A stretch of DNA of 64,000 nucleotides from Eledone cirrhosa (lineage: Eukaryota): assembly GCA_964016885.1 (NCBI GenBank), contig OZ024754.1, forward strand, positions 43,648,001 to 43,712,000. Direction: 5' to 3'. Under the pieces are notes generated by a model, which saw nothing but the letters and a program-made list of their open reading frames with translations, was not told the origin of the DNA and did no database searches. The translations under genes and the position numbers were made by a program. This document shows positions 1,375-57,768 of the stretch, one piece after another. Position 1 is the stretch's first letter, and every line of letters begins with the position of its first letter.

Positions 1375-1515
1375 AATGAAGGAAGTGTGGTAAGGAACCA
1401 GATGGACCATAACGTACCAGAGTACTCAATACTTAGGGTGGTAGAGTGGGTAATAGGAAAATGTCCAAGACCCCGACGGCAGAGCTCAAGCCGTTTCGAC
1501 GGATATTTCTGGACT
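1375..1515 (-). mobile_element. Family A TA-embedded element (half-hammerhead, PLE pLTR-like), single-arm copy
   Basis: About 140 bp unit shared with about 10 loci; (TA)n on both sides; minus strand starts AGTCCAGAAATATCCGTCGAAACGGC. Confidence 0.8.
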
Positions 1516-3104
1516 ATATATATATATATATTTGTTTGTGTGTGTGTGTGTATGTGCATATAAATACATTAGATATATATATATATATATATATTTATTT
1601 ATTTGTGTGTTTGTGTATGTACATATATATATATATATATATATATATATATATATATATATATATATATATATATATTTATATTTGTATGTTTGTGTGT
1701 GTACATATATATATATAAATATATATATAAATTTGCATGTTTGTGTGTGTACATATATATATATATATATATATATATAAATATATATACATATAAATAT
1801 ATATATATATTTATATGTTTGAGTGTGTAAATAAAAAAGTAAGACATATTAGAGAGGTTATATTTGAAGGTCTCAAGTTCCACCTTTATCTAATTAACTG
1901 ATATTCAATCACAATACTTTATTTAACCCCATCTTATACGGTTAATTATCGATCTATTTACTATATGTATATATTTACCTTAGATCGTGTTTAGTCATTG
2001 ATTTATTACTTTGTTCAATCACACGACTGAAGTTGTGGCTTTTTTTTATTAGAAACTAATCGATATGTCAGTTTTGTTTTATATTGATAGATCTCTTCCA
2101 AAATTACACATACATGTATATATATGTATGTGTATATATATATGTATGTATGTGTGTATGTATATATATATATATATATATATAACTGAACAAAAAAGTT
2201 AGACGAACTCAGACATATACATATATAAAATCATATATAATTAAGATCAAGAGAGTAAATACAAAGATATATATATATATATACATACATATACATACAC
2301 ATATATATATGTATATATTTATTTATATATATATATATATATATATATATATATATATATATATATATATATATATATATATATATATCTTTGTATTTTT
2401 CTCTCTTGATCTTCTCTTCTGCCACTCTTATTATCTCAGTCTCTATCTATCTATCTATCTGTCTATCTATCTATCTATCTATCTATCTATCTATCTATCT
2501 ATCTATCTATCTATCTATCTATCTATCTATCTCCATGTAGCTCAAACTCTTAAATTCCCTATCAAACAAGCTTCCCAGACTGATGTACATACATACATAC
2601 ATACATACATACATACATACATACATACATACATACATACATACATACATACATACATACATTACACAAACAAACAGACGCGCTCACAGACAGACAGACA
2701 GACGGACAGACAACTCTACCAGAATTTCATTTTTTAAACGTAATAAACTAAAGCAAGAATGTGTAAATGTTCCAGGAGAGTGGTGACGGTATCAACTAGC
2801 AGAGAGCCCAGTATAGCTCACCAAGGGTCTTGAAATATATCCGATTGTAATCTATATTAAAAGCCACCAGGAATTCTCAGCGACACACCTCAATGACTTT
2901 AGTTTGAAAACCTTTTTAGATATTTTACACTTGACATAAATAGACATGGAAATATATTTTACAAAACAAAAACAAAAAAGTTATAAGGAGGACATGGCAG
3001 AAAATATGTCTAGAAAATAACATAAAATAAAATAAAATAATAATAATAATAATAATAATAATAATAATAATAATAATAATAATAATGATAATAATAATAA
3101 TAAT

Positions 3105-3260
3105 CATTTCATTTATTAGCCACAAGGACCGACATGTAGGGGACAATACAAAGACAGGGACAGTGGGGGTTTACAATAAGGATAATAATAATAATAATAA
3201 TAATAATAATGCTTTCTTTATTAGCCACAAGGGTTTACATAAAGTAGACATTAAGGACAA
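3105..3260 (-). mobile_element. Two LINE 3' tips in a (TAA)n tract
   Basis: tttattagccacaagg motif twice next to (taa)n; 3208-3260 is near-identical to the reverse complement of 50720-50772. Confidence 0.6.
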
Positions 3261-3279
3261 TAATAATAATAACGTAATT

Positions 3280-3650
3280 GTGATGATGATGATGATGATG
3301 ATGATGGTGATGAGGGTGGTGGTGGTGATGATGGTGGTGGTGAGGGTGATGGTGATGAGGGTGATGGTGATGATGGTGGTGTGATGATGGTGAGGGTGAT
3401 GGTGATGATGGTGTGATGAGGGTGGTGGTGATGATGGTGATGGTGATGGTGACGTTGATGGTGGTGATGGTGATGATGGTGGTGTGATGATGGTGAGGGT
3501 GATGGTGATGATGGTGTGATGAGGGTGGTGGTGATGATGGTGATGGTGATGGTGAGGATGATGATGATCATCATGGTGAGGATGATGATGATGATGATAG
3601 TGGTGGTGGTCATAATGATGATGATGATGATAACAACAACAACAATAATG
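3280..3650. repeat. (GAT/GGT)n compound trinucleotide repeat
   Basis: Direct inspection. Confidence 0.9.
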
Positions 3651-3971
3651 ACAATATTAGAATTGAAGAAAGAAGGAAAGAAAGAAACAGCATCAAGTTA
3701 AATTCCATGTCTGAGATTTCAGTTTTTGTTTATATTTTCCCATCACACACACACACACACACACACACACACACACACACACACACACACACACACACAC
3801 ACACATATATATATATATATATATATATATATATATATATACACATACACACACACACACACAGACACACTCATGCGCACACACACACACAGACAAATAC
3901 ACACACACATACACACACACACACACACACACAGACACACACATGCACACATACACACAGAGACACATAAA

Positions 3972-54879: not shown

Positions 54880-55410
54880 AACATCTTTGGACAGCCACTT
54901 ATGACATGGGTGACATCTTCGATGTTAAATCTGCAAAAGAGTCTGCACTTGTTATCGCATCTAGGTGTTTTGCCTGCATCCCTATCTCTTTTGTGAATCA
55001 GGTATTTTGTATCGATTTCGTGTTCTTCAATTGCAAAAGCGTATCCTTCAAAGTGGGAGCCAATATGGCGGTTGTTGGTCCAAGATAGACTACCTCGTTT
55101 ATCTAGATTACTCTCACACTGGAGCTTCCAGGCAACATACCCATGCATGAGGTTTTGCTAAGCATGCAGTTTTTCATTCATGGATTCATTGCGGTTTTGT
55201 TGGGTAGTCTCCCTGGGTGTGAGTGTTTGGTTATCATGCAGGGAGTATCTTTCAAGGAGTTCCCCTCCCAACTCTCATGATCTTCTTTGTCTCATGAGAC
55301 AGACATGCTCAAGAGGTTCGTAGATGTTGTCGGAGGGATATGATGCGAGACTTAAATGCTGTCTGGACTGATGTTAGGCCTCTGCCACTCTGCTTATGTT
55401 TCAAGTTGCT
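54880..55410 (-). pseudogene. Degenerate non-LTR retrotransposon ORF fragment (R4/Dong-like, post-RT region plus CCHC knuckle)
   Basis: GRGLTSVQTAF, then MHGY..SLSW..FEGYAFAIEEHEIDTKY..KCRLFC..EDVTHVISGCPKM. Confidence 0.78.
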
Positions 55411-56874
55411 GTACTTCAGTAATTTGTTGTTGATATTGATGTTGTGCTCATCAAAAGTTGTTTGTTGCAGTATTTAGTCGGATATCTCTACGAATTCGAA
55501 TAAAAGGTGTCTTCAGTGGGTGTATTAGAAGAATATCCAGCTATTCAACATGACTGGTAGTTGTGGAATTATTGTCGGAGATAGTACTTATCTTAAATTT
55601 AATGAATAGTCTCCCACGCCAACATGTATGTATATATATATATATATATATATATATATATATAAATGTATGCATGTATATATATGTATATATGTATGTA
55701 TGTAATGTATGCATGCATGTGTATATATATATATATATATATATATATATATATATATATGCATATATGTATGCATATATGTATGTACATATGTATATGT
55801 GTATGTATGTATATGTATGTATATGCATATATGTATGTATGTATATATATGTATGTATGTTGGCCATACTCGATAACGAGGAGCAGCTATCATGTATGTA
55901 TATATGTATGTATATATATATATTATGTATATATATATATACATATATGTATGTATGTATGTATGTATGTATGTATGTATGTATGTATGTGTGTATGTAT
56001 GTATGTATGTATGTATGTATGTATGTATGTATGTATGTATGTAAATATGTAAGTATGTATGTATATATCTATGCATGTATATATGTATGTATGTATATAC
56101 ATATATGTATATATGTATTTATGTATGTATGTTTGTATGTTTTTCCCTTTCCCCTTATTTACACTAAAATGGCGGTTGTATCACAGCTGGCAGAACTTAA
56201 ATTGATATCATCACAGTTGGGGGGCTCAGAAATATCCGATCTTTTATCCCCCGTCATGCTGTATTGTATAACCAAAACACTTAACCTCTCTTAGCCTTAA
56301 TCCACCCAGCTACAAATAGGTGACAATATAAACAGGGGTACCACTATATAATTGACGAGTGTTATTTGACTTTTCCAACTACTCAGTTGACGATGCTTGA
56401 TGAGGTTTTCAGAGTGGAAGTCATATTATTCACCCGAGAAAGTATTCTGGGTGTTTAACCAAAAATCAGATTATAAACACACACACACACACACACACAC
56501 ATATATATATATATATATATATATATATGTATATATATATATATATACGTATAAGCAAATGTGTGTGTGAGTGTGTGTGTAATAAGGGTTTAGATCGATA
56601 TCCAATGATTTCGATGTTGTTGCTTACACTTTGCTCAATAAACCCATTTGGAGCACACACATAGGAACAATTGTTAGCCAACATTCTCAGCCAGAAGCCT
56701 TAGCCATGAAATCAGAGTGAAATTATTGTCTTAGCAGCTTAACATATAAAAATGTTAAAGTAGTCATTCAGTATCTCCCTTCTTTAGCACACAACCTGCT
56801 GTATATATATATATATATATATATATATATATATATATATATATATATATATATATATATATATATATATATAT

Positions 56875-57060
56875 AACGAAGGAAATGTGGTAAGGAACCA
56901 GATGGACCATAACGCACCAAAGTACTCAATACTTAGGGTAGTAGAGTGGGTAATAGGAACCAGTAAGACGCCGACGGCTGAGCTCAAGCCGTTTCGACGG
57001 CTAATTCGAATTAGCCGTCGAAACGGCTTGAGCTCAGCCGTCGGGGTCTTACTGGTTTCT
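56875..57060. mobile_element. Family A inverted dimer
   Basis: Near-perfect palindrome with apex ctaattc|gaattag (57007/57008); long arm on the minus strand; (TA)n flanks. Confidence 0.85.
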
Positions 57061-57572
57061 ATATATATATATATATATATATATATATATATATATATAT
57101 ATATATATATAGAGAGAGAGAGAGAGAGAGAGAGAGAGAGAGAGAGAGAGAGAGAGAGAGAGAGAGAGAGAGAGAGATATGCATACATATATACACACAT
57201 CAGTCCGTCTGATGAAACGACAAAGCAGAAACATAGAAGTCACTCCCACTTTTCTACTTCGGTAATATATTTCTACACTCTACCCACAGTATTGAGTACT
57301 CTTTCACTTGTTTGAATTATATTCTTTGAATGTTTTCAATACAACACTATTTTAAACACACACACATATACATATATATATATATATGTTTGTGTGTGTG
57401 TGTGTGTGTCTGTGCGTGTGTGTGTGTTTGTGTGCGTAGGTATATATATATATATATATATATATATATATATATATATATATATATATATATACATATA
57501 TATGTGTGTGTGTGTTTGTTTGTGTGTGTGTGTGTATAGATATATGTGTGTGTAAGATATATATATATATAT

Positions 57573-57768
57573 ACGAACGAGTAGGACCCCGACGGCTGAG
57601 CTCAAGCCGTTTCGACGGCTAATTCTGGGCGTCCAGAATTAGCCGTCGAAACGGCTTGAGCTCAGCCGTCGGGGTCCTACTCGTTCCTATTACCCACTCT
57701 ACTACCCTAAGTATTGAGTACTTTGGTGCGTTATGGTCCACCTGGTTACTTACCACATTTCCTTCGTT
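57573..57768 (+). mobile_element. Family A inverted dimer
   Basis: Apex ctgggc|gtccag (57630/57631); both arms share the private variant gtagg/cctac. Confidence 0.85.

Follow-up and report, generated by a model that had tools for sequence, protein, structure and literature searches.

Family A repeats in the window and in the genome

The window described here is the whole stretch that was analysed, 64,000 nucleotides (nt) of Eledone cirrhosa contig OZ024754.1 (positions 43,648,001 to 43,712,000), and the repeats of interest, family A, are pieces of the pseudo-long terminal repeat (pLTR) of a Penelope-like element (PLE) that carry only the 3′ half of a type I hammerhead ribozyme. A first-pass annotation had described about ten such copies, all lacking CTGANGA and all beginning near one fixed 5′ point. 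BLAST with the 57631..57768 copy as query recovers them at the sites it gave, as 17 arms in 11 insertions, and when the 5′ core strand was looked for none of the window copies was found to carry the hammerhead 5′ half; the copies and their absent half are thus confirmed, although neither a single fixed 5′ point nor the missing strand then proposed is. We number positions from the A of AGTCC (+1), with a predicted cut after +41, end 1 at +61 (TTCCTAT) and end 2 at +139 (CTTCGTT); short arms run to end 1 and long arms to end 2.

The long arm at 57631..57768 (plus strand) spans +2 to +139 of the pLTR, with the stem II 3′ strand at 57640-57647, GAAA at 57648, then stem III and the predicted cut after C 57670; end 1 is at 57690, and a 78-nt tail extends to end 2 at 57768. 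Head-to-head with it is a short arm to end 1 at 57571..57628 (minus strand). To the left, a long arm from +7 to end 2 (56875..57007, minus) abuts a short arm from +7 to end 1 (57008..57062, plus), a long arm from +19 to end 2 (52060..52178, minus) lies beside a short arm from +1 to about end 1 (52180..52235, plus), and a long arm trimmed to +67..+139 (31807..31879, minus) meets a short arm from +1 to end 1 (31877..31937, plus). Two heads that both reach +1, those of a short arm to about end 1 (9516..9567, minus) and a long arm to end 2 (9628..9765, plus), are separated by AT-rich filler at 9568..9627 (strandless). An older subfamily, A′, is represented by a short arm (33943..33981, minus) and a long arm with an internal deletion (33996..34101, plus). 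The remainder are a lone short arm from +2 to end 1 (16270..16329, plus) and a lone long arm from +1 to end 2 (1375..1515, minus), both with TA repeats on either side, a short arm from +16 to end 1 (5889..5934, plus), a tail fragment from +49 to end 2 (5639..5729, plus) and an old diverged arm of 77% identity (30437..30524, plus). The A of AGTCC is found at 1515 and 9567 on the minus strand and at 9628, 31877 and 52180 on the plus strand, and the copies at 16270 and 57631 start at +2. The output of repeat finders on the window was swamped by microsatellites, and an Rfam scan gave no hammerhead among the best 150 of 584 rows, which are microsatellite-driven and mostly miRNA families.

Genome-wide (3.0 Gb), an exact 21-mer of stem III has 49,490 matches compared with none for its reversed control, and a pattern for the ribozyme 5′ half has 6,823 (control 0). 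About 86% of the arms are short pieces beginning at the predicted start and 14% include the 5′ half, a rough ratio in that the two patterns differ in degeneracy.

Arm ends were tabulated in an unselected sample of 662 kb (the window itself, 40 of its neighbouring stretches and another 20 taken from other contigs) that contains 73 arms, and three patterns are apparent. First, the 5′ ends cluster at a wall near +1, with 29 at +1..+3, and the others scatter inward (27 at +4..+12, 11 at +13..+25 and six deeper); the shared 5′ end reported earlier therefore holds as a cluster and fails as a single point. Secondly, there are two fixed 3′ points 78 nt apart that had gone unmentioned, with 29 arms terminating at end 2, 26 at end 1 and 18 elsewhere. 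Thirdly, 52 of the 73 arms are joined head-to-head in 26 pairs, 21 of which combine end 1 with end 2 and five of which have one unclassed end; there are no same-end pairs. The arms of a pair carry matching subfamily letters wherever these can be read in both, and the more complete arm is the short one in 13 pairs and the long one in four, with nine ties (p = 0.049). At least three TA lie within 10 nt past the outer end in 53 of the 61 classed outer ends. The junctions are untidy and vary between copies, showing head trimming, templated bits, A/T runs or filler, and some family A heads are joined to heads of other families, B and E (L032, L041, L049, L050, L053, L058). At four junctions (L144-L146, L161) a long A-run is followed by a T-run, up to about 30 on each side, which suggests reiterative A addition by the reverse transcriptase (RT).

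The parent element and its hammerhead

On sequence evidence, family A is the pLTR and 5′ untranslated region (UTR) of a Hydra-clade PLE of about 3.55 kb that has the layout pLTR-ORF-pLTR (ORF, open reading frame) and encodes an RT and a GIY-YIG endonuclease. The route to this parent was through heads preceded by T-runs (1,275 matches, 30 of them read), which led to a 257-bp tandem with new sequence past end 2 that runs into an RT frame. The parent is directly seen in the genome: two pLTR heads 3.5-3.7 kb apart flank RT and endonuclease frames in nine of 20 fetched loci, and the 3′ repeat terminates at end 1 in nine of the 20 and at end 2 in four. A natural 774-amino acid frame (L213, 918-3239) has both domains in a single ORF, with the motifs RWR (a variant), SDKT, FDIESYY and YRDD, a CxCX5C linker (CNCPDGSIC), CNLC (CxxC), CKH (CxH) and a C-terminal VIY...YIG motif of the GIY-YIG type, and it lacks CCHH. 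The traits listed for the Hydra clade are RWK and DKT, the CxCX5C linker, CxxC/CxH, no CCHH, a C-terminal endonuclease and (TA)n insertion (PMC8557442), and the L213 RT blocks agree by eye with the alignment in its supplement. It is this motif set, together with the alignment by eye, that points to the Hydra clade and identifies family A as a Hydra pLTR and 5′ UTR.

The parent protein has an Atlas score of 0.99 to clusters, the best of which has Cnidaria as its commonest phylum, and PF26215 is carried by 24-31% of the members of the matched clusters; Pfam and PDB searches with the protein gave no match. The first in-frame ATG is about 100 nt beyond end 2, and parent and copies share (TA)n as their insertion target. 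A GIY-YIG family search (150 of 10,596 candidates scored; 30 plus 20 loci read) returned other PLE families and not the family A parent, and CTGANGA within 34 nt of the half has 45 matches, 30 of which were examined and are junction products or joins to other families, with no parents among them. We also note two types of head-to-tail tandem, with units of 257 bp (L141) and 273 bp (L189-L191), that consist of the pLTR and ORF start without the ribozyme 5′ half; these arrays are retrozyme-like but have no ribozyme. A palindrome, CCATATATGG, is kept about 10 nt upstream of stem I in both A and A′ (L197-L216 and L277-L296 heads), and a predicted distal stem I helix has its base at end 1.

The parent sequence before +1 is ACCCC-YTGANAA-G-NT-CGGCTATT, followed by about 30 nt and then TTC or TTT joined to AGTCC. 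The first-pass annotation had recognised a hammerhead 3′ half and placed the 5′ end of the copies in the loop of a long stem II of a parent ribozyme, all of which the parent sequence and its type I fold bear out. The strand that it expected, GACCCC-CUGANGA-GACGGC, was mistaken, the actual one absent from the short copies being ACCCC-TTGANAA-G[CTA]TCGGCTATT, and the upstream search pattern that it gave, CTGANGAGACGGCTA, has one match against one in the control. The GAAAC hairpin, whose presence in a setting such as the terminal inverted repeat of a DNA transposon would have counted against that annotation, lies within the complete parent ribozyme of an RT + GIY-YIG element.

Judged by its fold, the parent pLTR contains all of a type I hammerhead; its core is of the U3-A8 kind (TTGANAA in place of CTGANGA), with GAAA and NUH, and loop II is long, at about 35 nt. 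A type II reading, with the core downstream, was rejected as the tail contains no core. The hammerhead pairing is present in 88.1% of 690 cells over 33 natural heads, compared with 23-50% in slid controls, and at two stem II pairs A and A′ differ in both partners, which is compensatory, although there are two such events only. In A′, aligned from 19 of 20 fetched heads (L284, with a deletion, was omitted), the core is as in A, loop II is different, and T[TC]AGT is retained at the wall. A hand count of the first 100 of the 6,823 5′ halves gives 75 with U3-A8 and 25 with a C3-A8 mismatch, and the latter are likely to be impaired. The U3-A8 core is a natural variant that is reported to be active in vitro (PMC3088659) and occurs in schistosome PLEs (PMC4209133). 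In five copies the fold of minimum free energy is more stable than the hammerhead by 2.1-5.0 kcal/mol, so that self-cleavage of the parent ribozyme is no better than plausible. The isolated 3′ half keeps stem III, with pair probabilities of 0.98-0.99 for the four inner pairs. Descriptors built on CUGANGA overlook thousands of these U3-A8 hammerheads.

The 5′ wall and the origin of the short copies

The wall of short copies, which is directly seen, falls at the A of TCAGT or TTAGT in loop II, with inward scatter. There are 23,347 copies that extend to +1, and a hand count of the first 100 gives 74 that end no more than about 5 nt upstream, 23 that continue into the parent for the whole 15 nt and three that are unclear. 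In unselected DNA only two of 59 arms extend at least 19 nt upstream of +1, and among the opposite-strand joints listed for a separate set of contigs (run X1), which may come from the same source as the window, the deepest is +1/+1. The wall is most likely an RNA polymerase II (Pol II) start site, such that the RNA would begin inside loop II of the hammerhead; two explanations of the 5′ end had been offered earlier, an RNA start and a stop or snap-back of complementary DNA (cDNA), and the first fits best. The sequence YYAGTY at the wall is conserved in A and A′ though loop II diverges, and we take it to resemble the initiator consensus. TATT(T/C)A is present at -29 to -31 in all seven A heads checked. 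In family F, 24 of 43 arms begin 1-7 nt before the CUGA, at a wall about 30 nt below a perfect TATAAATA (four parent copies), and the Penelope element of Drosophila virilis has an internal promoter (PMC2377424). We note separately that family F has a whole hammerhead, that its parent (L119, L123, L069, L039) has TATAAATA 34-36 nt before the CUGA and that its short copies begin in stem I. Two other readings of +1 were rejected: as a splice acceptor, in that the copies retain the AG, and as the cut product of an upstream hammerhead, for which there are five matches, none with a matching stem I.

Several observations weigh against a start at +1, which is predicted from motifs. Eight of 20 ORF-leading heads examined are truncated inside, and among the 12 that reach +1, 11 run through it and only one begins there, so that tandem read-through or a template jump is required. 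The base preceding +1 in the 74 stopped copies is T in 33, C in 25, G in 14 and A in two, with no clear copied cap G, and by hand count seven of the 14 G may derive from the partner arm. A TATA-like box at -30 is missing in A′, and some half of the arms begin 3-25 nt further in than the wall, which must be ascribed to trimming. The excess of more complete short arms is marginal.

We consider it probable that family A copies are short pLTR pieces formed by RT priming at two internal sites and running off at the predicted start in loop II. The GIY-YIG endonuclease would cut a TA repeat and both DNA ends would prime cDNA, one at +61 and the other at +139, near the RNA 5′ end; both cDNAs would run to +1, and host end-joining would trim and join the two heads, at times with A-runs or filler. 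The half ribozyme would then be a by-product of the position of the transcription start, with an mRNA 5′ end that could not cut itself and a 3′ pLTR carrying the whole ribozyme. The strict pairing of end 1 with end 2 and the matching subfamily letters suggest that one ribonucleoprotein primes both DNA ends at two RNA sites, and the joining of family A heads to family B and E heads indicates that two separate cDNAs can be joined. In vitro, two internal RT starts bound the tail of an Anolis PLE (PMC11167929).

A bolder version, which we put forward tentatively and consider rather doubtful, is a retrovirus-like copying without a tRNA, with transcription starting in the ribozyme, a strong-stop cDNA that jumps to the 3′ end, and family A copies representing failed jumps. 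Only the 3′ pLTR would self-cleave, after +41, yielding an RNA with a 41-nt terminal repeat, and, with priming sites only near the RNA 5′ end, the strong-stop cDNA would have to jump 3′ for the element to be copied. It would fit both the surplus of short copies and the rarity of starts at +42; amplification of the C3-A8 subfamily and the dispensability of the hammerhead in vitro (PMC11167929) argue against it. If true, it would give PLE hammerheads a role and account for rebuilding of the pLTR, and both pLTR regeneration and the role of the hammerhead are unsettled in the field (PMC8557442, PMC11167929).

Among competing explanations, the one that survives best, although we think it unlikely, is that the RNA reaches further 5′ and that a U-tract or inner hairpin in loop II makes the RT stall, slip off its template or snap back, which would generate both wall and palindromes. 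A/T-run expansions at many junctions (in a sample chosen for T-runs), the A′ inner hairpin that ends about 4 nt upstream of +1, and the agreement of paired arms in subfamily letters can all be read this way, and self-priming has been proposed for PLE palindromes (PMC3846280). However, a structural stop fits poorly because RT gets past +1 in 11 of the 12 ORF-leading heads, because A′ has the same wall motif with a different loop (the wall holds in both A′ and the TTCAG subfamily, neither of which has a U-tract adjoining +1), and because the short arm is more complete (13 versus 4), when snap-back of a long cDNA predicts the reverse; heads of different families are also found joined.

The very high copy number, and the existence of deleted tandem derivatives without the ribozyme 5′ half (L141, L189-L191), might suggest that the short copies are a self-propagating, non-autonomous family resembling a short interspersed element (SINE), with an internal promoter and Hydra protein supplied in trans. 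This is improbable, since the junctions vary between copies rather than being inherited, and the short copies bear the subfamily letters of the autonomous elements and are without the upstream TATA-like region.

The first-pass annotation had coupled an RNA start to a functional split ribozyme, in which the short RNA is cut once the missing strand pairs in trans; stem III does fold in the isolated half, an upstream strand could supply stems I and II, and PLE hammerheads are thought to work as dimers (PMC4209133). That coupling does not hold up, and we regard such a ribozyme as very improbable: the 5′ half is always in cis beside its own 3′ half, with the whole ribozyme in the 3′ pLTR, and the half and missing strand folded together without constraints do not form a hammerhead. 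Arms starting at +38..+44 number one in 73, so cut products are hardly copied, the 5′ halves with a C3-A8 mismatch have been amplified nonetheless, and PLE insertion in vitro is unaffected by hammerhead mutants (PMC11167929). Finally, a miniature inverted-repeat transposable element (MITE) with terminal inverted repeats of about 60 bp and a centre lost through hairpin deletion, which the palindromic shape and TA flanks bring to mind, is refuted for practical purposes by the parent, an RT + GIY-YIG element whose terminal repeat and 5′ UTR this sequence forms, as well as by the asymmetric 78-nt tail and the lack of common internal sequence between arms.

If two-site priming with run-off at +1 does account for family A, tens of thousands of insertions of a known parent locate, at single-base precision, one 5′ wall and two sites of priming. 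They would preserve an early step of a copying process that is poorly understood, and genomic data from a second PLE clade would then support internal priming at two sites. Such palindromes risk being misfiled as MITEs or SINEs. The Hydra PLE class, inverted pLTRs, tails and U3-A8 cores have each been published separately. A literature search, with most subscription papers outside its reach, found no account of transcription starting within a PLE hammerhead or of PLE strong-stop copies in large numbers; neither is mentioned in the passages of PMC13282606 covered, or described in the part covered of bioRxiv 10.64898/2026.07.22.740005.

Other hammerhead repeats and comparison with known systems

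The window also contains, at 57200..57310 (plus), a decayed copy of an older repeat family distinct from family A, in which a minimal core resembling a hammerhead is accompanied by a tail motif related to that of family A. The weak core at 57207-57243 had earlier been associated with family A through this tail; the tail relationship stands, although the core belongs to a separate family with 40 scored matches and a minimal hammerhead-like fold, the 39 besides the window copy being 76-92% identical. The motif CTCTAC...AGTATTGAGT, at 57276-57302 and 57696-57722, is common to the tails of both families and is a candidate protein-binding element. Other short repeat families have complete minimal type I hammerheads, many of them head-to-head in TA repeats, and several are in the window (6087-6332, 14839, 16521 minus, 17996 minus, 22592, 27018, 47036 and 53125 minus); these are probably pLTR pieces of other PLEs. 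The short palindromes of family E are pLTR sequence of a Neptune-like element that is autonomous and encodes RT and GIY-YIG (L116, L120-L122, L130, L131, L049), and they too start at a fixed point, CAGTTG, and two loci (L123, L130) are long head-to-head palindromes of 5′-truncated PLE copies with both ORF ends intact.

The family A parent shares with the Hydra clade described by Craig et al. 2021 (PMC8557442), which includes Hydra-1_Obim, a C-terminal GIY-YIG, RW[KR], DKT, CxCX5C, CxxC and CxH around the endonuclease, no CCHH, a (TA)n target, a pLTR hammerhead, and inverted 5′-truncated copies with a tail. Hydra-1_Obim is a different family, as judged by eye from the supplement, and the parent departs from the clade in its length (about 3.55 kb, where less than 3 kb is usual), its U3-A8 core and loop II of about 35 nt, in contrast to canonical hammerheads, and its tail (78 nt compared with 30-40). 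Poseidon PAc of Anolis (Frangieh et al. 2024, PMC11167929) likewise has two internal RT starts bounding a tail downstream of the hammerhead and an AT-rich target; however, its ORF begins in stem II and its RT starts are in the ORF, whereas those of the family A parent are in the 5′ UTR and the predicted start splits the ribozyme. Penelope of Drosophila virilis (PMC2377424, PMC4209133) has an internal Pol II promoter in the pLTR, as predicted for family A, an atypical hammerhead and inverted pLTRs, but its start precedes the ribozyme and its helix I directly adjoins the end of an intron, whereas that of family A is predicted to be inside loop II.

Non-LTR retrozymes (PMC4209133; bioRxiv 10.64898/2026.07.22.740005) are also short PLE-related repeats with type I hammerhead sequence. 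They are head-to-tail tandems with a whole ribozyme in each unit, whereas family A forms dispersed head-to-head pairs with half a ribozyme. Tandem units with a complete hammerhead, by which retrozymes are recognised, were not found here, the copies being dispersed and both tandems seen lacking the 5′ half. A parallel is the minus-strand strong-stop DNA of LTR retroelements, a short cDNA that is primed internally and ends where the 5′ end of the RNA is reached. It is tRNA-primed, whereas family A copies, if formed by two-site priming and run-off at +1, would be target-primed and derive from a PLE and not from an LTR element.

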